Shown in pieces: positions 4,545-64,000 of a stretch of DNA of 64,000 nucleotides. The DNA is taken from assembly GCF_003018255.1 (NCBI RefSeq), contig NZ_CP027440.1; one strand, 5' to 3'. Position 1 is the first letter of the stretch. Every line of letters starts with the position of its first letter. The DNA comes from Escherichia coli (GTDB lineage: Bacteria; Pseudomonadota; Gammaproteobacteria; Enterobacterales; Enterobacteriaceae). The notes under the pieces are model-generated. The model did no database searches, was not told the DNA's origin, and was given only the letters and a program-made list of their open reading frames with translations. The position numbers were made by a program, and so were the translations under genes.

Positions 4545-6305
4545 TTATTTTGCCCAGAATGCTGCTTTGGCGCGCTGCAGCTTTTCGTAGGCCTTCAACA
4601 ACGACTGATGTGCAGCAAACGCGTGCAGATCGCTATCTACTGGTTGCAAACCATAAAACGCCGCTTCGCCGCTCATTGCCGCACTGGCGGCTTCCACGGC
4701 ATCTGCGCCGTACATGCGAACAAACGCATTCAGATATTGCAGCGGCTGGCGATCTTCTTCCTGCGCCAGTAATAACAACGTTTGCAGGCAGCGATAATAG
4801 TTGGCGCGTTCCGGGCTGAATACCGATGAGTTAAACTCCATCGTCCATTCGGTCCAGACCAGAGCCTGTTCCAGATCGCCACCAGCCAGCGCCAGCATGG
4901 CTTTTAATTCACCGATACGCAGGGTGTACCAACCGTTATCCGACCCGGTCGCCAGACCCAACAGCTCACGCACGCGGGTAAAGTCATCAAAACCTTCTTC
5001 ATCCAGTTGCTCGATGAGGTTCAGGTAATCTTCTTTTTCCCACTCGCTGCCTGGTAACGAAAGAATCGTTTCACGTAAATGGCTGCCCATACTGTTATTC
5101 GCCAGCCACAGATCTTCAGCCGGATAAATATCGGACATGCCAGGCACGATAATTCGGCAAGCATAAACGCCCAGATGCTCGTAATCGGCAATATAAACTT
5201 CTTTATCTTCTTTGTTGAAGATAGCCATCAGCGTAGCAAACTCTTCTTCCGTAGTGCCGGAGAAATTCCAGTCCACAAACGGATAATCGGCATCCTGCTT
5301 GAACAGGTCCCAGGAGATTAAACCGCTGGAATCGATAAAGTGCGTTTCGAGGTTGGTATGTTCAGCAACTTCTTCATCATCGAAGGTTGGCGGAGTAAAC
5401 ACATCCAAATCTTTCAGGCCACGACCTTGCAGCAGCTCGGTCACGGTACGTTCCAGTGCTACGCCAAAATCAGGATGCGCACCGAAAGAGGCAAAGCAGG
5501 TACCGTTAGCAGGATTGAACAGTACCACGCAAATCACCGGATACTGGCCGCCAAGCGAACCATCATAAGCAAAGATTGGGAAACCTTCTGCTTCCAGCGT
5601 TTCGATGGCTTCAACCACCGCTGGGTAACGCGCCAGCACGTCTGCCGGGATTTCCGGCAAGCTGATGCTTTCAGCAATAATGCGGTTTTTCACGTAGCGT
5701 TCGAAAACTTCGGACAACCCCTGAACGCGTGCTTCGTTACGGGTATTGCCAGCGGACATACCGTTAGAAACATACAGGTTACCAATGATATTCATCGGAA
5801 TATAAACGGTCTGATTATCAGACTGACGCGTAAACGGCAGACCGCAAATACCACGATCTTCGTTACCGGATTGCAGGTCAATCAGCATACTGCCGGCCAG
5901 TTCATTCTCCGGATCGTAAAATGCGCGCAGACGGTCATCGAGCAGCCCTTCTGGCACATCGTCATTTTCGCTCAGTGGGAACCATTTTTCGTTGGGATAA
6001 TGCACGAACGGACCGTTGGCGATGGTTTCGCCCAGCCAGAAATCAGCAAAAAAGTAGTTGGTTGAGAGACGCTCGAAATATTCACCGAGTGCAGAAGCCA
6101 GCGCCGCTTTTTTGGTTGCGCCTTTACCGTTGGTAAAACACAGTGCGCACTCTTTGTCGCGAATATGTACAGACCAGACGTTAGGCACCGGATTCAGCCA
6201 GGAGGCCTCTTCAATCTGAAAGCCGAGGTCTGAAAGTTTTTGCTGGAAGCGAGCGATGGAATCTTCCAGTGCGGCATCTTTGCCGGGGATAAATGTTTGC
6301 GTCAT
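4545..6305 (-). CDS. ycaO: YcaO-domain protein (ATP-dependent, ribosomal protein S12 methylthiolation accessory factor)
   Basis: ORF 4545..6338; known YcaO N-terminus MTQTFIPGKD at internal ATG 6303-6305, giving 586 aa. Confidence 0.93.
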   Translation of the reverse strand: MTQTFIPGKDAALEDSIARFQQKLSDLGFQIEEASWLNPVPNVWSVHIRDKECALCFTNGKGATKKAALASALGEYFERLSTNYFFADFWLGETIANGPFVHYPNEKWFPLSENDDVPEGLLDDRLRAFYDPENELAGSMLIDLQSGNEDRGICGLPFTRQSDNQTVYIPMNIIGNLYVSNGMSAGNTRNEARVQGLSEVFERYVKNRIIAESISLPEIPADVLARYPAVVEAIETLEAEGFPIFAYDGSLGGQYPVICVVLFNPANGTCFASFGAHPDFGVALERTVTELLQGRGLKDLDVFTPPTFDDEEVAEHTNLETHFIDSSGLISWDLFKQDADYPFVDWNFSGTTEEEFATLMAIFNKEDKEVYIADYEHLGVYACRIIVPGMSDIYPAEDLWLANNSMGSHLRETILSLPGSEWEKEDYLNLIEQLDEEGFDDFTRVRELLGLATGSDNGWYTLRIGELKAMLALAGGDLEQALVWTEWTMEFNSSVFSPERANYYRCLQTLLLLAQEEDRQPLQYLNAFVRMYGADAVEAASAAMSGEAAFYGLQPVDSDLHAFAAHQSLLKAYEKLQRAKAAFWAK

Positions 6306-11668: not shown

Positions 11669-13342
11669 ATGACTGAATCTTTTGCTCAACTCTTTGAAGA
11701 GTCCTTAAAAGAAATCGAAACCCGCCCGGGTTCTATCGTTCGTGGCGTTGTTGTTGCTATCGACAAAGACGTAGTACTGGTTGACGCTGGTCTGAAATCT
11801 GAGTCCGCCATCCCGGCTGAGCAGTTCAAAAACGCCCAGGGCGAGCTGGAAATCCAGGTAGGTGACGAAGTTGACGTTGCTCTGGACGCAGTAGAAGACG
11901 GCTTCGGTGAAACTCTGCTGTCCCGTGAGAAAGCTAAACGTCACGAAGCCTGGATCACGCTGGAAAAAGCTTACGAAGATGCTGAAACTGTTACCGGTGT
12001 TATCAACGGCAAAGTTAAGGGCGGCTTCACTGTTGAGCTGAACGGTATTCGTGCGTTCCTGCCAGGTTCTCTGGTAGACGTTCGTCCGGTGCGTGACACT
12101 CTGCACCTGGAAGGCAAAGAGCTTGAATTCAAAGTAATCAAGCTGGATCAGAAGCGCAACAACGTTGTTGTTTCTCGTCGTGCCGTTATCGAATCCGAAA
12201 ACAGCGCAGAGCGCGATCAGCTGCTGGAAAACCTGCAGGAAGGCATGGAAGTTAAAGGTATCGTTAAGAACCTCACTGACTACGGTGCATTCGTTGATCT
12301 GGGCGGCGTTGACGGCCTGCTGCACATCACTGACATGGCCTGGAAACGCGTTAAGCATCCGAGCGAAATCGTCAACGTGGGCGACGAAATCACTGTTAAA
12401 GTGCTGAAGTTCGACCGCGAACGTACCCGTGTATCCCTGGGCCTGAAACAGCTGGGCGAAGATCCGTGGGTAGCTATCGCTAAACGTTATCCGGAAGGTA
12501 CCAAACTGACTGGTCGCGTGACCAACCTGACCGACTACGGCTGCTTCGTTGAAATCGAAGAAGGCGTTGAAGGCCTGGTACACGTTTCCGAAATGGATTG
12601 GACCAACAAAAACATCCACCCGTCCAAAGTTGTTAACGTTGGCGATGTAGTGGAAGTTATGGTTCTGGATATCGACGAAGAACGTCGTCGTATCTCCCTG
12701 GGTCTGAAACAGTGCAAAGCTAACCCGTGGCAGCAGTTCGCGGAAACCCACAACAAGGGCGACCGTGTTGAAGGTAAAATCAAGTCTATCACTGACTTCG
12801 GTATCTTCATCGGCCTGGACGGCGGCATCGACGGCCTGGTTCACCTGTCTGACATCTCCTGGAACGTTGCAGGCGAAGAAGCAGTTCGTGAATACAAAAA
12901 AGGCGACGAAATCGCTGCAGTTGTTCTGCAGGTTGACGCAGAACGTGAACGTATCTCCCTGGGCGTTAAACAGCTCGCAGAAGATCCGTTCAACAACTGG
13001 GTTGCTCTGAACAAGAAAGGCGCTATCGTAACCGGTAAAGTAACTGCAGTTGACGCTAAAGGCGCAACCGTAGAACTGGCTGACGGCGTTGAAGGTTACC
13101 TGCGTGCTTCTGAAGCATCCCGTGACCGCGTTGAAGACGCTACCCTGGTTCTGAGCGTTGGCGACGAAGTTGAAGCTAAATTCACCGGCGTTGATCGTAA
13201 AAACCGCGCAATCAGCCTGTCTGTTCGTGCGAAAGACGAAGCTGACGAGAAAGATGCAATCGCAACTGTTAACAAACAGGAAGATGCAAACTTCTCCAAC
13301 AACGCAATGGCTGAAGCTTTCAAAGCAGCTAAAGGCGAGTAA
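11669..13342 (+). CDS. rpsA: 30S ribosomal protein S1
   Basis: 557-aa ORF with repeated S1 domains; matches RpsA; no strong Shine-Dalgarno upstream, as known for rpsA. Confidence 0.97.
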
Positions 13343-13352
13343 TTCTCTGACT

Positions 13353-13380
13353 CTTCGGGATTTTTATTCCGAAGTTTGTT
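13353..13380 (+). terminator. putative partial terminator after rpsA
   Basis: Hairpin cttcgg...ccgaag (13353-13374) followed by TTTGTT; weak U-tract, consistent with read-through into ihfB. Confidence 0.4.
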
Positions 13381-13388
13381 GAGTTTAC

Positions 13389-13417
13389 TTGACAGATTGC
13401 AGGTTTCGTCCTGTAAT
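13389..13417 (+). promoter_or_regulatory. candidate sigma70 promoter for ihfB
   Basis: TTGACA (13389-13394), 17-bp spacer, TGTAAT (13412-13417); read from sequence only. Confidence 0.4.
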
Positions 13418-13425
13418 CAAGCACT

Positions 13426-13447
13426 AAGGGCGGCTACGGCCGCCCTT
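13426..13447 (+). other. perfect 9-bp GC-rich stem-loop in the ihfB leader
   Basis: aagggcggc-tacg-gccgccctt; no U-tract follows, so not a classic terminator. Confidence 0.5.
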
Positions 13448-13501
13448 AATCAATGCAGCAACAGCAGCCGCTAAATTTGCCTTTAAGGAACCGGAGGAAT
13501 C

Positions 13502-13786
13502 ATGACCAAGTCAGAATTGATAGAAAGACTTGCCACCCAGCAATCGCACATTCCCGCCAAGACGGTTGAAGATGCAGTAAAAGAGATGCTGGAGCATATG
13601 GCCTCGACTCTTGCGCAGGGCGAGCGTATTGAAATCCGCGGTTTCGGCAGTTTCTCTTTGCACTACCGCGCACCACGTACCGGACGTAATCCGAAGACTG
13701 GCGATAAAGTAGAACTGGAAGGAAAATACGTTCCTCACTTTAAACCAGGTAAAGAACTGCGCGATCGCGCCAATATTTACGGTTAA
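13502..13786 (+). CDS. ihfB: integration host factor beta subunit
   Basis: 94-aa ORF; matches IhfB (HimD). Confidence 0.97.
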
Positions 13787-30490: not shown

Positions 30491-30502
30491 GTGCACAGAA
30501 AA

Positions 30503-30521
30503 CCCCCAGCTAGGCTGGGGG
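30503..30521 (+). repeat. IS200 left-end subterminal hairpin
   Basis: Perfect 8-bp GC stem cccccagc-tag-gctggggg. Confidence 0.6.
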
Positions 30522-30558
30522 TTCCGGAAAGCTTTCAGCTTTGAGCCAGTTATTAAAA

Positions 30559-30627
30559 CCCCTTTTGATTTGTTAAAACACCTTGCGGTCTGGCAACTGC
30601 AAGTGTCAAACAAGAAATCAAAAGGGG
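30559..30627 (+). promoter_or_regulatory. long-range stem sequestering the tnpA ribosome-binding site
   Basis: ccccttttgatt (30559-30570) is exactly complementary to aatcaaaagggg (30616-30627), which contains the Shine-Dalgarno immediately upstream of tnpA ATG 30634; matches the known translational occlusion in IS200. Confidence 0.55.
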
Positions 30628-30633
30628 GTCCCA

Positions 30634-31092
30634 ATGGGGAACGAAAAGAGCTTAGCGCACACCCGATGGAACTGTAAATATCACATAGTTTTTGCGCCAA
30701 AATACCGAAGACAAGTGTTCTACAGAGAGAAGCGTAGAGCAATAGGCAGTATTTTGAGAAAGCTGTGTGAGTGGAAAAGCGTACGGATTCTTGAAGCTGA
30801 ATGCTGTGCAGATCATATCCATATGCTTGTGGAGATCCCGCCCAAAATGAGTGTATCCGGCTTTATGGGATATCTGAAAGGGAAAAGCAGTCTGATGCTT
30901 TACGAGCAGTTTGGTGATTTGAAATTCAAATACAGGAACAGAGAGTTCTGGTGCAGAGGGTACTACGTCGATACGGTGGGTAAGAACACGGCGAAGATAC
31001 AGGATTACATAAAGCACCAGCTTGAAGAGGATAAAATGGGAGAGCAGTTATCGATTCCCTATCCGGGCAGCCCGTTTACGGGCCGTAAGTAA
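30634..31092 (+). CDS. tnpA: IS200/IS605-family transposase TnpA (HUH Y1 single-strand transposase)
   Basis: ORF 30583..31092; start moved to ATG 30634 (MGNEKSLAHTRWNCKYHIVFAPKYRR...) giving 152 aa; HUH motif within DHIHMLVEIP; near-identical to Salmonella IS200 TnpA as recalled. Confidence 0.95.
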   Translation: MGNEKSLAHTRWNCKYHIVFAPKYRRQVFYREKRRAIGSILRKLCEWKSVRILEAECCADHIHMLVEIPPKMSVSGFMGYLKGKSSLMLYEQFGDLKFKYRNREFWCRGYYVDTVGKNTAKIQDYIKHQLEEDKMGEQLSIPYPGSPFTGRK

Positions 31093-31173
31093 CGAAGTTG
31101 GATGCAAATGTCAGATCGTGTGCGCCTGTTAGGGCGCGGCTGGTAAGAGAGCCTTATAGGCGCATTTGAAAAA

Positions 31174-31192
31174 CCTCCGGCTATGCCGGAGG
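31174..31192 (+). repeat. IS200 right-end subterminal hairpin
   Basis: Perfect stem cctccggc-tat-gccggagg followed by ATATTTATTTT. Confidence 0.6.
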
Positions 31193-31429
31193 ATATTTAT
31201 TTTCCGAAAACTCCGTTTCTGCACTAAAAAAGTGGCACATTACGGCGCGCTTTTCTTTAAACTTCTTTACATTAGGTTATGTAAAAACGTATCGGCGTTT
31301 ATATACTGAAGATAAGCCTGATGAGTAACAGGCTTGCTCGTCATACTTTCGTGAGTATTGGCGTTGTACAGGCAAGTCGTAAAATAACAGCCTGGCTATT
31401 CAGAGTATGATAAAAACAGGGGGCAAGGG

Positions 31430-34689: not shown

Positions 34690-34725
34690 AAAAAGCCCGC
34701 TTTTTAAGCGGGCTTCATTGTTTTT
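34690..34725. terminator. bidirectional Rho-independent terminator (gloC on +, aspC on -)
   Basis: Hairpin agcccgc-tttttaa-gcgggct flanked by an A-run upstream and a T-run downstream, between convergent genes. Confidence 0.7.
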
Positions 34726-43445: not shown

Positions 43446-43462
43446 TACTTTTGAGCCAAAAT

Positions 43463-43609
43463 GCCGGATGCGACGCTTGACGCGTCTTATCAGGCCTACA
43501 AGTCCGTTGAAAATGCTGGTTTTGTAGGCTGGATAAGGCGTTCACGCCGCATCCGGCAGCCGTGCCCAAATGCCTGATGCGACGCTTGACGCGTCTTATC
43601 AGGCCTACA
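43463..43609. repeat. REP elements forming a BIME (three copies in alternating orientation)
   Basis: gccggatgcgacgcttgacgcgtcttatcaggcctaca (43463-43500), inverted copy 43524-43560, near-identical copy 43571-43609; a partial fourth copy follows at 43631-43648; lies between convergent pepN and ssuB. Confidence 0.85.
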
Positions 43610-43650
43610 ATCCGTTGAAACTGCTGGTTTTGTGTGCCACATCCGGCATA

Positions 43651-44418
43651 TTAACCATGACGCCGAATCGGTTGTTCAGAGTGCCCACGCTGCATCACCC
43701 GTTGCAAAACTTCCGCTTCCAGCTCCGCTAATCGCACCGACCCTAACCGGCGCGGACGGGGGATATCCACCGTCAAATCCAGACCAATTTTTCCCTCTTC
43801 AATTAACAATACCCGGTCAGCCATTGCTACCGCTTCGCTCACATCATGCGTCACCAACAGTACGGTAAAGCCGTGCTCCTGCCAAAGTGACACAATCAAA
43901 TCCTGCATCTCGAGCCGAGTCAGGGCGTCCAGCGCCCCGAGCGGTTCATCAAGCAATAATAAACCCGGTCGATGAATTAACGCTCTTGCCAGCGCCACAC
44001 GCTGTTTCTGCCCGCCAGAAAGTGCGGCAGGCCATTCCCCTGCGCGGTTCTCCAGTCCTACTGCAGCCAACGCCCGACGCGCGGCATCGCGCCACTGGCC
44101 TTTAAGGCCTAACCCAACGTTATCAATCACCGATTTCCACGGTAGCAGACGCGCATCCTGAAACATCATTCGCGTGTCTTCCTGAATCTCAGCCAGCGGT
44201 GTGGTGCCCGCTAACACGTCGCCTGCGGTTGGCGTTTCCAGACCTGCCAGCAGGCGCAGCAGGGTACTTTTGCCACCACCGCTGCGGCCCACCACCGCCA
44301 CAAACTGACCTGCCGGAATATGTAAATCCAGTTGGTTCAGGACGATATTTTCCGCGTATTGTTTGCTTACTGCATTGAGCAACAATGGTGTGCCCTGGTT
44401 CAGACGAGCAGTATTCAT
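43651..44418 (-). CDS. ssuB: aliphatic sulfonate ABC transporter ATP-binding protein
   Basis: 255-aa ORF; Walker [18 protein letters not shown]; matches SsuB. Confidence 0.96.
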
Positions 44419-45217: not shown

Positions 45218-46363
45218 TTAGCTTTGCGCGACGTTACGGGGGATAAAATCATTTGCCACCGCTTCGCCTTGCGGATTCAGCGGCTGCGGCTGGGGAATTT
45301 CCGGGATGGCGACATCCAGATGCGGGAACAGCAACTCGCCAACCCGATACGCTTCTTCCAGATGCGGGTAGCCCGAAAGCACAAAGCTGTCGATGCCAAG
45401 CGCGGCGTATTCGTTGATTCGCGCAGCGACCGTCGGACCATCGCCCACCAGTGCCGTCCCGGCACCGCCGCGCACTAAGCCAACGCCCGCCCATAAATTG
45501 GGGCTGATCTCCAGATTGTCGCGCTTGCCGTTATGTAGCGCCGCCATTCGCTGTTGTCCTACGGAATCCGTCCGGGCGAATGCGGCTTGTGCTTTGGCGA
45601 TAGTCTCATCATCAAGATGCGAGATTAACCGCTCGGCGGCCTGCCACGCTTCGTCGTTGGTTTCACGAACAATCACATGCAGACGAATACCGAAACGAAT
45701 TTTGCGTCCATGCGCGGCAGCTTTCGCCCGCACTTGTTCGATTTTCTCTTTAACCAGTTCCGGCGGTTCGCCCCAGGTGAGGTAGAGATCAACTTGTTCT
45801 GCCGCCAGCTCCTGGGCGACATCTGACGATCCGCCAAAGTAAAGCGGAGGATACGGCTGTTGAATCGGCGGGAAGAGCAGTTTGGCTCCGCGCACATGAA
45901 TATGTTTACCGTTGAAATTGACGGTTTCCCCCAGCAATAAGCGCCGCCAGACCTGGGTAAATTCCGCCGAGGCTTCGTAGCGCTCGCTATGATCAAGGAA
46001 CACGCCGTCGCCTGCCAGCTCTTGTGGATCGCTGCCTGTGACCAGATTAAACAACGCACGACCATTCGAGAGACGGTCAAGCGTGGCGGCCTGGCGGGCG
46101 GCAACGGTAGGTGAGGTTACGCTGGGACGCAGGGCGACAAGAAACTTCAGCCGTTGCGTCACCGGGATCATCGACGCGGCAACCAGCCACGCATCTTCAC
46201 ACGATCGTCCTGTTGGGATCAGCACACCGGTATAACCCAGACGATCCGCCGCTTGCGCAATTTGTTGCAGATAACCGTGATCAACCGGACGTGAACCTTC
46301 TTCCGTTCCCAGATAGTGCCCGTCACCATGGGTCGGTAAAAACCAGAACATATTCAGACTCAT
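45218..46363 (-). CDS. ssuD: FMNH2-dependent alkanesulfonate monooxygenase
   Basis: 381-aa ORF; matches SsuD. Confidence 0.96.
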
Positions 46364-47319
46364 AATTGTTTTCCTTCCAGTTGAGTGGGCTGCCAGATGC
46401 GCTGGCGAATATCGACTTTTTTCGGCACCAGACGGTTTTCATAAAACAGATCTGCCGTTTGCTGCTGTAAGGCGGCAACTTCAGCGCTCAACGGTTTGAT
46501 GGTGGTGGGAGGACGATGATCCAGATATGAGGCAATAACCGGTGCCGGTAAGCCCATCGTTTTTGCCAGTAAAGCGATGCTTTGTTCGCGCTGGCTGCGG
46601 GTTAACGCATCGGCCTCACTAAAGGTTGTCAGCACACCCTGAATAAAAGCGCCGTTTTTTTCTGCATACGGACGAGCTGCCAGATAAAACGATCCAGTTT
46701 GATTGAGATCGGTGCCGTCTTTCAGCACCCGCACGCCGCCCTGTAATAATGCAGCGGAGTAGTAGGGATCCCAGATAGCCCAGGCGTCAACGTTACCTTG
46801 CTGGAACGCGGCGCGGGCATCGGCAGGCGTCAGGTAAGTGGGCTGAATATCCGTGAATTTAAGCCCGGCCTGGCGAAGGGCTCGCAGTAAAAGATTGTGC
46901 GAACTGGAACCTTTCTGAAAGGCAACTTTGTGACCTTTAAGATCGGCTACGGTTTTGATCGGGCTGTTTTCTGCCACCAGAATCACTTCGGCTTTGGGTT
47001 TCGGTGGCTCGACGCCCACGTATACCAAATCAGCCCCGGCAGCCTGGGCAAAGATTGGCGGAATATCCCCGGTACTGCCGAGATCGATACTGCCAACGTT
47101 TAACGCCTCCAGCATCTGTGGGCCAGCGGGGAACTCCACCCAGGAGATTTTTGTTTGCGGATAGCGTTTTTCCAGTAACTGGTGGCTTTTTGCCAGCACC
47201 ATACCAATACTGCCTTTTTGATAGCCTATACGTAACGCCTCTGGCGAAGACTCCGCGGCAACAGCAAGTGTAGAGACGCTAAGTAAACCCGCCAGCGCCA
47301 GTTTAATGATCTTACGCAT
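46360..47319 (-). CDS. ssuA: aliphatic sulfonate periplasmic binding protein
   Basis: ORF 46360..47361; start moved to ATG 47317-47319 ([12 protein letters not shown]...) giving 319 aa with signal peptide; overlaps ssuE 3' end by 8 nt. Confidence 0.93.
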
Positions 47320-47887
47320 GGGCATTACCTCGCAGAGACAGAAGGTCAGGAACCTGAACATCGCGGCGGTGCAACGCCTGCCAGAAAGTTTCTAGCGCGG
47401 TATCAAGACGAGTTTGCAGATTTGGCGTGAACTGGGGTTTGTGTTGGTAATCAATTACTTGCGAGTCATCGGCAAACACGCCGTGCAGGATCTCCTGGGC
47501 TTTCAGCGTACTTAAAACTGGCTTAAGGGCATAATCGACCGCCAGCAGATGGGCCACGGTGCCGCCTGTCGCCAGCGGCAGCACCACTTTGCCTTGCAAC
47601 GCACGTTCTGGCAGCAGGTCGAGCAGGGTTTTCAGCGCGCCGGAATAGGCGGCTTTATACACAGGCGTGGCGACAATCAGCCCATCGGCCTGTTGCAGCT
47701 GTTCGGTGAAGGTCTTGAGTGCCGGACTATCGAAACGAGCATAAAGCAGATCTTCCGGGACGAAGTTTTGCAAATTCCAGTGATAAACCTCTACATCCAG
47801 GCCATTTAGTTTTTCCCGCGCATATTCCAGCAAGGAGCTGGAGCGAGAAGGAAAGCGAGGACTACCCGCCAGGGTGATGACACGCAT
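47312..47887 (-). CDS. ssuE: NADPH-dependent FMN reductase
   Basis: 191-aa ORF; matches SsuE. Confidence 0.96.
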   Translation of the reverse strand: MRVITLAGSPRFPSRSSSLLEYAREKLNGLDVEVYHWNLQNFVPEDLLYARFDSPALKTFTEQLQQADGLIVATPVYKAAYSGALKTLLDLLPERALQGKVVLPLATGGTVAHLLAVDYALKPVLSTLKAQEILHGVFADDSQVIDYQHKPQFTPNLQTRLDTALETFWQALHRRDVQVPDLLSLRGNAHA

Positions 47888-48123
47888 ACTCTCTCCTTAT
47901 AACCAATTGTTCTTGTTTTGTTAACATTGATAACAATTCGGTCAGTCTGACAGAGGGCGTCCGCGAGTCGAAATGATTTATCTGAGGAAGAAAAGCCAAA
48001 AAAAGCATAAAAAAAGCGCAATAAGAAAACGTTTGCTATTTATTGCCGCAGGTCAATTCCCTTTTGGTCCGAACTCGCACATAATACGCCCCCGGTTTGC
48101 ACACCGGGAATCCAGGAGAGTTC
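47888..48123. promoter_or_regulatory. divergent ssuE / pyrD promoter region
   Basis: 236-bp spacer between divergently transcribed ssuE and pyrD; individual operators not resolved by eye. Confidence 0.4.
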
Positions 48124-49134
48124 ATGTACTACCCCTTCGTTCGTAAAGCCCTTTTCCAGCTCGATCCAGAGCGCGCTCATGAGTTTACTTTTCAGCAATT
48201 ACGCCGTATTACCGGAACGCCGTTTGAAGCACTGGTGCGGCAGAAAGTGCCTGCGAAACCTGTTAACTGCATGGGCCTGACGTTTAAAAATCCGCTTGGT
48301 CTGGCAGCCGGTCTTGATAAAGACGGGGAGTGCATTGACGCGTTAGGCGCGATGGGATTTGGATCGATCGAGATCGGTACCGTCACGCCACGTCCCCAGC
48401 CAGGTAATGACAAGCCGCGTCTCTTTCGTCTGGTAGATGCCGAAGGTTTGATCAACCGTATGGGCTTTAATAATCTTGGCGTTGATAACCTCGTAGAGAA
48501 CGTAAAAAAAGCCCATTATGACGGCGTTCTGGGTATTAACATCGGCAAAAATAAAGATACGCCGGTGGAGCAGGGTAAAGATGACTATCTGATTTGTATG
48601 GAAAAAATCTATGCCTATGCGGGATATATCGCCATCAATATTTCATCGCCAAATACCCCAGGATTACGCACACTGCAATATGGCGAAGCGCTGGATGATC
48701 TCTTAACCGCGATTAAAAATAAGCAAAATGATTTGCAAGCGATGCACCATAAATATGTGCCGATCGCAGTGAAGATCGCGCCGGATCTTTCTGAAGAAGA
48801 ATTGATCCAGGTTGCCGATAGTTTAGTTCGCCATAATATTGATGGCGTGATTGCAACCAATACCACGCTCGATCGTTCTCTGGTTCAGGGAATGAAAAAT
48901 TGTGATCAAACCGGTGGCTTAAGTGGTCGTCCGCTTCAGTTAAAAAGCACAGAAATTATTCGCCGCTTGTCACAGGAATTAAACGGTCGCTTACCGATCA
49001 TCGGTGTTGGCGGCATTGATTCGGTTATCGCTGCGCGTGAAAAGATTGCTGCGGGGGCCTCACTGGTGCAAATTTATTCTGGTTTTATTTTTAAAGGTCC
49101 GCCGCTGATTAAAGAAATCGTTACCCATATCTAA
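48124..49134 (+). CDS. pyrD: dihydroorotate dehydrogenase (quinone)
   Basis: ORF 48097..49134; start moved to ATG 48124 ([10 protein letters not shown]...) preceded by CAGGAGAG; 336 aa. Confidence 0.96.
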
Positions 49135-51199: not shown

Positions 51200-53308
51200 A
51201 TGAATTCTCTGTTTGCCAGTACGGCCCGTGGGCTGGAAGAGCTGTTAAAAACTGAACTGGAAAACCTGGGGGCCGTTGAATGCCAGGTGGTTCAGGGTGG
51301 GGTCCATTTCAAGGGCGACACACGGCTTGTTTACCAGAGCCTGATGTGGAGCCGCCTGGCCTCGCGTATTATGTTGCCGCTGGGCGAGTGTAAGGTTTAC
51401 AGCGATTTAGACCTCTATCTCGGTGTTCAGGCGATCAACTGGACAGAGATGTTTAATCCTGGCGCGACCTTCGCTGTCCACTTCAGTGGTTTGAATGACA
51501 CCATCCGCAACAGTCAGTACGGCGCGATGAAAGTGAAAGACGCGATCGTCGATGCTTTCACGCGGAAAAATCTGCCGCGTCCAAATGTTGATCGCGATGC
51601 GCCGGATATCCGCGTTAACGTCTGGCTGCATAAAGAAACCGCCAGTATTGCCCTTGATCTCAGTGGTGATGGTTTACATCTGCGTGGCTATCGCGATCGT
51701 GCTGGTATTGCGCCGATCAAAGAAACCCTGGCAGCCGCGATTGTTATGCGATCCGGCTGGCAGCCAGGAACACCGCTGCTCGATCCGATGTGTGGTTCCG
51801 GTACGTTGTTGATTGAAGCGGCGATGCTGGCGACCGATCGCGCACCAGGCTTGCACCGTGGACGTTGGGGCTTTAGCGGCTGGGCACAGCATGATGAAGC
51901 CATCTGGCAGGAAGTGAAAGCAGAAGCGCAAACCCGCGCCCGTAAAGGCCTGGCTGAGTATAGCTCTCATTTTTACGGTTCGGACAGCGACGCACGGGTG
52001 ATTCAACGTGCGCGCACTAACGCCCGTCTTGCGGGGATTGGTGAACTGATCACCTTTGAAGTGAAAGATGTCGCGCAACTGACCAATCCGCTGCCGAAAG
52101 GGCCGTACGGTACAGTGTTGAGCAACCCGCCATACGGTGAACGTCTGGACAGCGAACCGGCGCTGATTGCGCTGCATAGTCTGCTGGGCCGAATCATGAA
52201 AAACCAGTTCAGCGGCTGGAATCTCTCTTTATTCAGTGCCTCGCCGGATCTGTTAAGTTGCCTGCAGTTGCGTGCAGACAAACAGTACAAAGCGAAAAAC
52301 GGTCCATTAGACTGCGTGCAGAAAAATTACCACGTTGCCGAAAGCACACCAGACAGCAAACCGGTAATGGCAGCGGAAGACTACGCCAACCGTCTGCGTA
52401 AGAACCTCAAAAAATTCGAGAAGTGGGCGCGTCAGGAAGGCATTGAATGCTACCGCCTGTACGACGCCGATCTACCGGAATACAACGTTGCAGTTGACCG
52501 CTACGCCGATTGGGTGGTGGTGCAGGAGTATGCGCCGCCAAAAACTATTGATGCGCACAAAGCGCGTCAGCGTCTGTTCGATATTATCGCTGCAACCATT
52601 TCGGTATTGGGGATTGCGCCAAACAAACTGGTGCTGAAAACCCGTGAACGCCAGAAGGGCAAAAATCAGTACCAGAAACTGGGCGAGAAGGGCGAGTTTC
52701 TCGAAGTTACCGAATATAACGCTCACTTGTGGGTGAACCTGACGGATTACCTCGATACCGGTCTGTTCCTCGATCACCGTATCGCCCGTCGTATGCTCGG
52801 TCAGATGAGCAAAGGCAAAGATTTCCTCAACCTGTTCTCTTATACCGGCAGCGCCACCGTGCACGCGGGATTAGGCGGTGCACGCAGCACTACCACCGTG
52901 GATATGTCGCGTACTTATCTGGAGTGGGCAGAACGCAACCTGCGTCTGAATGGCCTAACCGGGCGTGCGCATCGCCTGATTCAGGCCGATTGCCTGGCGT
53001 GGCTGCGTGAGGCAAATGAACAGTTCGATCTGATTTTTATCGATCCGCCAACCTTCTCTAACTCAAAACGAATGGAAGATGCGTTTGATGTTCAGCGCGA
53101 TCATCTGGCGCTGATGAAAGATTTGAAACGTCTGCTGCGTGCTGGTGGGACGATCATGTTCTCGAACAACAAACGTGGCTTCCGTATGGATCTTGACGGA
53201 CTGGCAAAACTGGGACTGAAAGCACAAGAAATTACGCAAAAAACGCTCTCCCAGGATTTCGCCCGTAACCGCCAGATCCACAACTGCTGGCTGATTACCG
53301 CAGCCTGA
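51200..53308 (+). CDS. rlmL: bifunctional 23S rRNA m2G2445 / m7G2069 methyltransferase
   Basis: 702-aa ORF; matches RlmKL (YcbY). Confidence 0.96.
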
Positions 53309-62368: not shown

Positions 62369-63421
62369 TTAAGCCTGCGGCTGAGTTACAACGTCTTTGA
62401 TGCCTTTAACTTCGATCTCTACGCGACGATCCGGAGCCAGGCAATCGATCAGTGCAGCACGCTGTTTCACGTTGTCACAGGTGTTGCCAGTAACCGGGTT
62501 GGATTCGCCCATACCACGTGCGGAGATTTTGTCTGCCGGGATACCTTTAGAGATCAGGTAATCAACAACGGACTGAGCACGACGCTCGGACAGAGCCTGG
62601 TTATAAGCGTCAGAACCGATGCGGTCAGTGTAACCCAGAACAACTACGGAACCGTCTTTCGGATCCAGGTTGCTCAGCTGGCTGTACAGCTGATCCAGAG
62701 CAGCCTGACCTTCCGGTTTCAGGGTTGCTTTGTTGAAGGTGAACAGAACGTCAGACTTCAGAGTGAAGTGCTTGGTCTGTACTTCCGGTGCCGGAGCTGG
62801 AGCCGGAGCAACTACTGGAGCTGCTTCGCCCTGACCGAAACGGTAGGAAACACCCAGGCTCAGCATGCCGTTGTCCGGACGAGTGCCGATGGTGTGTGCA
62901 TCACCGATGTTGTTGGTCCACTGGTATTCCAGACGGGTAGCGATTTCAGGAGTGATCGCATACTCAACACCGCCAGCGAAGACCGGAGAAACGCCGGTGT
63001 CGTGGTCTTTAAAGGATGCGCCACCAGGTACGTTAGCCTTGGTGTCTGCACGCCATACCATACCACCCAGACGAGTGTAGATGTCCAGATCGTCAGTGAT
63101 TGGGTAACCCAGTTTAGCGGTCAGCTGAACGCCCTGAGCTTTGTATGCGCCGTTGATGTTGTCGCCTTTGTACGGCATACGACCTAACCAGTCGTAACCC
63201 ATTTCAAAGCCAACATACGGGTTAACCTGGTAACCACCAAAAGCACCTGCACCCAGTTGGTTTTCGTGGGTCGGACCATTGTTAGGAATAAAACCAGTGT
63301 CATGGTACTGGGACCAGCCCAGTTTAGCACCAGTGTACCAGGTGTTATCTTTCGGAGCGGCCTGCGCTACGGTAGCGAAACCAGCCAGTGCCACTGCAAT
63401 CGCGATAGCTGTCTTTTTCAT
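62369..63421 (-). CDS. ompA: outer membrane protein A (variant allele, 350 aa)
   Basis: ORF 62369..63508; known N-terminus [21 protein letters not shown] at ATG 63419-63421; beta-barrel plus C-terminal OmpA-like domain; 4 aa longer than the K-12 protein as recalled. Confidence 0.96.
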
Positions 63422-63553
63422 TTTTTGCGCCTCGTTATCATCCAAAATACGCCATGAATATCTCCAACGAGATAACACGGTTAAATCCTTCACCGGGGAT
63501 CTGCTCAATATTAACTCTACCGATATCTTCGGCTTATGCCGAGCACCCCTGGC
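63422..63553 (-). promoter_or_regulatory. ompA long 5' UTR (inferred P2 start near 63553)
   Basis: Minus-strand sequence beginning GCCAGGGGTGCTCGGCATAAGCCGAAGATATCGG matches the recalled 5' end of the ~133-nt ompA leader, a known MicA target region. Confidence 0.5.
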
Positions 63554-63776
63554 GATGTAAAGTCTACAACGTAGTTGAAAACTTACAAGTGTGAACTCCG
63601 TCAGGCATATGAAAAAAAAGTCTTGTATAAGGTACGTTTAATCTTTTTTGTCAGCGACAATTTACAGAAGAAAATCGCGGAAACCGCTTCAGACAAGCCT
63701 CCGCAAGGAAAATTAGTCACGACTGAAAGCATTGGCTGGGCGACAAAAAAAGTTCCAGGATTAATCCTAAATTTAC

Positions 63777-64000
63777 TTAATGATACAAATTAGAGTGAAT
63801 TTTTAGCCCGGAAAGTTGTCTCGTTGCGTGAGAGGATGCGCTTACCGGACGCATAATAAACCCCATAGCGTTACCTTCATTTGCCGCATCAACAAGTTCA
63901 GCATGCTCTTCTGCAGTCAAATCATCTGCCAACCAACCGATCACCACGCTGTAATTGCCCGTGCGTAAAGCGCGAACCATTGACTCCACGGTGTGGCAAG
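63777..64000 (-). CDS. sulA: SOS cell-division inhibitor SulA (3' portion only; 5' end beyond window edge)
   Basis: ORF 63777..63989 encodes ...[24 protein letters not shown]...KIHSNLYH, the SulA C-terminus; reading frame continues to the window edge. Confidence 0.85.

Follow-up and report, generated by a model that had tools for sequence, protein, structure and literature searches.

The Ycb (Elf) fimbriae of Escherichia coli have been linked to phylogroups A, B1, D and E, and the closely related Auf fimbriae, which are mutually exclusive with Ycb, to phylogroup B2 (Wurpel et al. 2013, PMC3559732). In a survey from 2025, ycb was detected in ST38 and was lacking in ST131, ST95, ST73, ST1193 and ST69, which splits group D into ST38 with and ST69 without these genes (PMC12058657). 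The two surveys agree in assigning ycb/elf to groups A, B1, D and E and not to B2 (ST131, ST95 and ST73; PMC3559732, PMC12058657). Both score the presence or absence of genes, and the junction at an elf-free locus, the direction of the event and the ancestral state in other genera are not described in their accessible text.

Like Elf, Auf is encoded by a related seven-gene chaperone-usher cluster, the usher of which is 48% identical to ElfC; unlike Elf, it occupies another locus (between glgP and glpD), has another gene order and ends in a large adhesin-like gene. The cryptic chaperone-usher operons of K-12 are reportedly the subject of a study by Korea and colleagues from 2010 (cited in PMC12058657), and horizontally acquired fimbrial islets are said to be silenced by H-NS.

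The elf cluster of K-12 ends next to the pyrD regulatory region, which in E. coli and Salmonella comprises a PurR operator and a start-site-switch leader (RF02373), and the right half of the elf-free spacer studied here matches the model of this leader fully. The only addition that the present analysis makes to the known pattern is the direction of the event, with the K-12 arrangement as the derived state and the layout at our locus as the ancestral one.

Layout of the ssuE-pyrD locus and its alignment with K-12

The whole stretch of DNA that was analysed (64,000 bp, referred to as the window) extends from pflA to sulA on an E. coli chromosome, and strains JNE23-011 and JNE112863 are 99.9% identical to it over 25 kb. 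Its ssuE gene, which is annotated under that name in near-identical genomes, encodes a protein with 98% amino acid identity to K-12 SsuE, and its PyrD is 99.7% identical to that of K-12. As stated in the original prediction, the two genes are directly adjacent, with a spacer of exactly 236 bp between their ORFs (Table 1). The elf/ycb cluster that was said to be missing from this site is indeed not there, as none of the seven K-12 Elf/Ycb proteins yielded a match in the 64-kb window (tblastn, E ≤ 1e-3), and the same search found no Elf gene fragments at the ssuE-pyrD junction. The junction had also been described as free of IS remnants and flanking repeats, in agreement with which a repeat search of positions 47500-48500 returned only the 14-bp palindrome of the PurR box discussed below.

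The prediction placed seven additional genes between ssuE and pyrD in K-12, and the RefSeq annotation of MG1655 lists precisely these, namely elfA, elfD, elfC, elfG, ycbU, ycbV and ycbF (b0938-b0944), of which elfC encodes the usher and elfD and ycbF the two chaperones. In blastn alignments, positions 47000-47949 of the window correspond to positions 4626-5575 of the K-12 locus (L001), with the match ending 62 bp upstream of the ssuE start codon, and positions 48025-49000 correspond to 12669-13645 of that locus, with the match restarting 11 bp past the ycbF stop codon. The remaining 75 bp of the window (47950-48024) occupy the place of 7093 bp in K-12. The adjacency of ssuE and pyrD without elf in this strain is real but ordinary, the presence/absence pattern being already known.

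As a whole, the window corresponds to positions 950328-1020633 of K-12 (64,000 versus 70,306 bp, a difference of 6306 bp). The elf cluster and an IS200 insertion had been held to account for this difference, and the bookkeeping bears this out: the elf region (-7018) and the IS200 element (+709, at 30491-31199) explain almost all of it, while two more indels nearly cancel each other (+163 at 43448-43674 and -162 at ~34700). The 709-bp insertion lies between mukB and ldtD and is annotated in JNE23-011 as an IS200C-family transposase gene (tnpA). The first of the two smaller indels concerns the pepN-ssuB intergenic region, which measures 227 bp in the window versus 64 bp in K-12 and holds two copies of a REP-like palindromic unit (GCCGGATGCGACGCTTGACGCGTCTTATCAGGCCTACAA) where K-12 has a simple hairpin; the second concerns the gloC-aspC interval (~34694-34704), from which a 162-bp REP-containing segment of K-12 (984321-984482) is missing. 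In 1-kb bins, the identity to K-12 is ~95% at 46001-47949, which spans ssuA and ssuE (94-96.5%) beside the elf polymorphism, compared with 97-99% in most other bins. Values of ~95% were also found for 52001-53000 and 63001-64000.

Elements of the spacer

The features of the locus are collected in Table 1.

Table 1. Genes and spacer elements at the ssuE-pyrD locus (positions in the window)
Feature	Position	Strand	Remarks
ssuE (NADPH-dependent FMN reductase; first gene of ssuEADCB)	47312..47887	-	ORF of 191 aa
Divergent ssuE/pyrD regulatory spacer, very probably the unoccupied ancestral site	47888..48123	.	Colinear with 58 other empty-site loci
ssuE-proximal block, ~98% identical to K-12	47888..47949	.	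Motifs CCTTATAAC and TAACATTGATAACAATT, conserved family-wide
Central 75 bp, no blastn match in K-12	47950..48024	.	Conserved blocks CTGACAGAG, CGAAATGATTTAT and GCATAA
Putative counterpart of the elf insertion point in occupied alleles	48012..48024	.	Left intergenic regions colinear with spacer profile
PurR-operator-like box AAGAAAACGTTTGCTA, upstream of pyrD	48023..48038	+	Palindrome from repeat search
PyrD leader (Rfam RF02373)	48056..48129	+	cmscan 97.9 bits versus a gathering score of 47, E = 1.4e-17
pyrD (quinone-dependent dihydroorotate dehydrogenase)	48124..49134	+	ATG at 48124; 336 aa

The palindrome returned by the repeat search (AGAAAACGTT/AACGTTTGCT, 14 bp at 48024-48037) lies within a box that is a candidate PurR operator, agreeing with the published PUR-box consensus at 14 of 16 positions. 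The core of the box (GAAAACGTTTGC) recurs in more than 90% of 59 aligned spacers, and the edges of the putative box differ between the window (AAGAAAACGTTTGCTA) and K-12 (CGGAAAACGTTTGCGT), where the box is located 10 bp past the ycbF stop codon. The PyrD leader further downstream was matched by cmscan over all of model positions 1-74 of 74, and contains a CCCGG...CCGGG hairpin just 5′ of the Shine-Dalgarno sequence with a predicted stability of -13.9 kcal/mol. From the PurR box to the pyrD start codon there are only three differences to K-12, each of them directly past the box, so that pyrD control should be the same in elf-bearing and elf-free alleles.

Towards ssuE, the left part of the spacer must hold the Cbl/CysB-dependent promoter of ssuEADCB, and a consensus promoter scan found nothing in the spacer. 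For the mapping of the ssuE transcription start and of the sites footprinted by Cbl and CysB, the primary paper is reportedly that of van der Ploeg from 1999 (JBC), and a paper by Bykowski from 2002 is said to deal with the ssu promoter as well. The central 75 bp are near-identical in Escherichia whittamii, Escherichia sp. MOD1-EC7003 and 'E. coli' SCPM-O-B-8794, and recognisable in Citrobacter, Enterobacter, Kosakonia, Cedecea and Buttiauxella.

Outgroup spacers and the direction of the event

For comparison with outgroups, a PyrD scan with one genome per species provided 80 loci (E. fergusonii not being among them), onto which the K-12 proteins were mapped. In most of these loci ssuE is located directly beside pyrD, at a distance of ~230-255 bp. 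This empty arrangement was found in Citrobacter, Enterobacter, Kosakonia, Klebsiella, Kluyvera, Cedecea, Buttiauxella, Leclercia, Yokenella and Trabulsiella, and within Escherichia itself in E. whittamii, MOD1-EC7003 and SCPM-O-B-8794. The window spacer aligns from end to end with 58 other spacers of 227-256 bp, stemming from more than 12 enterobacterial genera and from these three Escherichia lineages, each of which has a 236-bp spacer near-identical to that of the window. The closest outgroup to E. coli that was fetched, MOD1-EC7003 (93-96% nucleotide identity in ssuE, pyrD, zapC and ycbX, and 91-93% in ssuD and ssuA), is likewise empty.

Homology with elf-free outgroups is thus continuous across the site, and the spacer has its full length, with nothing missing relative to outgroups that were never occupied. 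The loss relative to K-12 that was implied by the original prediction therefore runs in the wrong direction, since the 75 bp without a blastn match in K-12 align with outgroup spacers and it is K-12 that carries an insertion. A deletion in the window could not have recreated 75 bp that are shared with outgroups. That no scar was seen by eye is in turn explained by the site being an ancestral, never-occupied one.

In the most probable scenario, for which we see strong though not conclusive grounds, the spacer is the ancestral, uninterrupted site that was retained here, and elf is an insertion in K-12-type lineages. The spacer would then be the original divergent promoter region of ssuEADCB and pyrD, kept in a phylogroup-B2-like lineage, and both the PyrD leader and the PurR-type palindrome are indeed intact in it. 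A single, old insertion would have brought the ~7-kb elfADCG-ycbUVF cluster into this spacer in some enterobacterial lineage, at a point just upstream of the pyrD PurR box, after which the occupied allele would have reached part of Escherichia, probably by homologous recombination via the conserved flanks. The locus makes a clean textbook case in which an empty ancestral site is told from a deletion by means of outgroup spacers, and it corrects a reference bias, as K-12 represents the derived state here and genes that are absent in comparison with K-12 have not been lost.

Occupied alleles and the probable point of insertion

Four alleles were found to be occupied, i.e. those of K-12, Escherichia sp. 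E1V33 and two Pseudocitrobacter species. The Elf proteins of E1V33 are 80-86% identical to those of K-12 at the amino acid level, while Pseudocitrobacter faecalis (L024, 3148-9887) and P. vendiensis (L027, 3153-9887) carry an elf-like seven-gene cluster with amino acid identities of 55-74% to K-12. The presence of this elf-like cluster at the same site suggests that the occupied allele has either passed from one genus to another or descends from a very old common ancestor.

The right-hand junction is common to all four occupied alleles, in which the ycbF stop codon is followed by 10 nt and GAAAACGTTTGCG, at exactly 110 bp from the pyrD start codon, and this shared junction argues for a single original elf insertion. 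However, since the junction is also the edge of the constrained pyrD promoter, its being shared may partly reflect selection rather than common origin. Loci that lack ssu altogether bear on the same spot: in E. albertii (L008), Salmonella enterica subsp. arizonae (L016), Klebsiella indica and some others, ssuEADCB is absent and pepN adjoins pyrD, and there too homology to K-12 restarts at the PurR box. Because gene content changes there in these ssu-free loci as well, the sequence directly preceding the PurR box is a recurrent point of gene-content change.

At the left-hand side, the intergenic region between ssuE and the elf cluster was compared with the ancestral spacer in several ways. A profile of the central segment (47950-48024) matched the Pseudocitrobacter left intergenic region with 12 bits, a score that was reached by 0 of 300 shuffles, and gave no match in the left intergenic regions of K-12 and E1V33. 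In ungapped, in-register comparisons, the K-12 region agreed at 33 of 70 positions and the E1V33 region at 32 of 70, against 20 ± 3.5 for shuffled sequences, of which 4 of 5000 reached the observed value for K-12 and 0 of 5000 for E1V33. With a profile of the full spacer, E1V33 and Pseudocitrobacter could be aligned as far as node ~124-125 (the GCATAA block) and K-12 as far as node 87. The homology of the K-12 left intergenic region to the ancestral spacer is thus weak (47%) and supportive only. Past the insertion, homology restarts at the PurR box in all four occupied alleles, and from these limits the insertion point would correspond to ~48012-48024 of the window, just upstream of this box.

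Between occupied and empty alleles of Escherichia, identity falls sharply at 47949/47950, from ~98% to ~47%. We infer that this drop marks the endpoint of a recombination event through which a more distant lineage donated the occupied allele.

In base composition the elf insert stands out, with 46.5% GC versus 55% for ssu and 51% for the window, and only 27% in the intergenic region upstream of the insert. With this atypical composition and its absence from most of the 80 loci, the K-12 insert has features of a genomic island, and its low GC content, AT-rich upstream region and absence from most outgroups resemble those of fimbrial islets silenced by H-NS. It differs from such islets at its ends, where no integrase, tRNA, IS element or target-site duplication was found; the annotation of the insert itself shows fimbrial genes only, with no integrase, tRNA or IS. 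By eye, degenerate copies of the type 'ACG...TATTTATTG' seemed to be present at the left end in K-12, E1V33 and Pseudocitrobacter and were considered as a target-site duplication of the PurR-box region, an idea that was dropped because a profile of window positions 48018-48060 matched none of the left intergenic regions.

Retention, replacement or deletion

If B2 nests among elf-positive lineages, the empty allele could have been re-acquired by recombination, which would speak against simple retention. An elf-bearing ancestor would then have received the ancestral spacer back from an empty-site donor (e.g. another Escherichia lineage), so that the loss of elf would be secondary and due to allelic replacement. 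Such a history would fit the patchy distribution of elf both within E. coli and across Escherichia (where E1V33 is occupied and whittamii, SCPM-O-B-8794 and MOD1-EC7003 are empty), a patchiness from which it follows that alleles at this site have been exchanged or sorted between lineages. It would also fit the lower identity of ssuA and ssuE to K-12 relative to most of the window. However, distance matrices for ssuD, ssuA, ssuE, pyrD, zapC and ycbX place the window closest to K-12 for all six genes, and the window is no nearer to any outgroup than K-12 is. As the window stays closest to K-12 in these flanking genes, they bear no sign of a flank imported from another Escherichia lineage. With the closest outgroup being empty, retention is the simpler reading, and although the two are not fully separable here, we prefer an empty allele retained in B2 over one regained by replacement, which we regard as quite unlikely.

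Far less probable still is that a K-12-like ancestor lost the 7-kb elf cluster by deletion in situ, through illegitimate or IS-mediated recombination; nothing can be cited for this except that K-12 is 7 kb longer at the site. This reading is already contradicted, as a deletion would not recreate 75 bp that are missing from K-12-type alleles and match outgroup genera block by block, nor is there any IS, repeat or gene fragment at the junction. What a deletion at this locus does look like can be seen in HS30-1 (L089, 7001-9206), in which an IS1 element separates the truncated remnants of elfC and elfG, with most of elfC and the start of elfG gone; this is a true secondary deletion inside the elf cluster and unlike the junction in the window.

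Possible consequences for ssu regulation

The elf-bearing allele may behave as a recombining islet that moves between enterobacterial genera via conserved flanks, without mobility genes of its own, and on reaching E. coli it may have replaced ~60 bp of the ancestral ssuE upstream region. The stretch concerned holds CGAAATGATTTAT and GCATAA, which are conserved in more than 12 genera, while the K-12 version is only 47% identical. Should these blocks serve as binding sites for Cbl, CysB or IHF, the architecture of the ssu promoter as worked out in K-12 would be a derived one, and B2 strains like the present one would regulate the scavenging of sulfonate sulfur via the ancestral architecture. The combined proposition, in which a recombining elf islet replaced this stretch and thereby altered ssu regulation, is a speculative one that we consider doubtful. 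The ssuE upstream region does differ between K-12-type and B2-type alleles, which could matter when the ssu promoter model of K-12 is applied to ExPEC; beyond such housekeeping, the importance of the locus is little.

Frequency of the two states in E. coli

Both states were counted in 5426 complete E. coli genomes, of which 1351, including LF82 and NRG 857C, share the contiguous ssuE-pyrD junction of the window. One copy of the central 96 bp (47940-48035) was found in each of 1341 genomes, such as those of Nissle, an O18 strain and an APEC O2:K1:H5 strain, and none in the other genomes. This agrees with the phylogroup-dependent distribution known for Ycb, the B2 membership of the empty-site class resting on the named strains LF82, NRG 857C and Nissle, and the layout marks the window as a B2-type segment of the E. 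coli chromosome. The elfC gene was detected in 4036 genomes (median of one place per genome, two at most), with alleles that are 90-95% identical to K-12 in 438 of these. Genomes with elfC and genomes with the empty junction add up to 5387 of the 5426, so that the two classes are almost complementary, and the remainder includes degraded elf clusters.

With 64 kb of the genome inspected, the cluster might be thought to have been relocated elsewhere by a rearrangement, but we give this practically no credence, given the single place of elfC per genome, the near-complementarity of the two classes and the identity of the distant matches in elfC-free records as other ushers. Where elfC is lacking (1408 records by best match), the top DNA matches listed reach only ~63-76% identity over 5-41% of the query, and they fall on other ushers such as auf, sfmD and fimD. 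Because of the almost complementary classes, the elf cluster can be considered absent and not relocated, a statement that applies to relatives of this strain and not to the remainder of its own genome.

The auf usher, with its 48% amino acid identity to ElfC and its position between glgP and glpD, was present in 560 of the 5426 genomes, far fewer than the 1351 without elf. Given this number and its different locus and gene order, auf is neither a relocated elf nor a general substitute for it, and no auf cluster is present in the window. Among individual strains, IAI39 (phylogroup F) has a genome that is rearranged relative to K-12. In isolate 127, the glgP-glpD interval (L087, 4788-11943) contains an auf-type seven-gene cluster, in which the annotation marks the second chaperone gene as a pseudogene carrying an internal stop codon.
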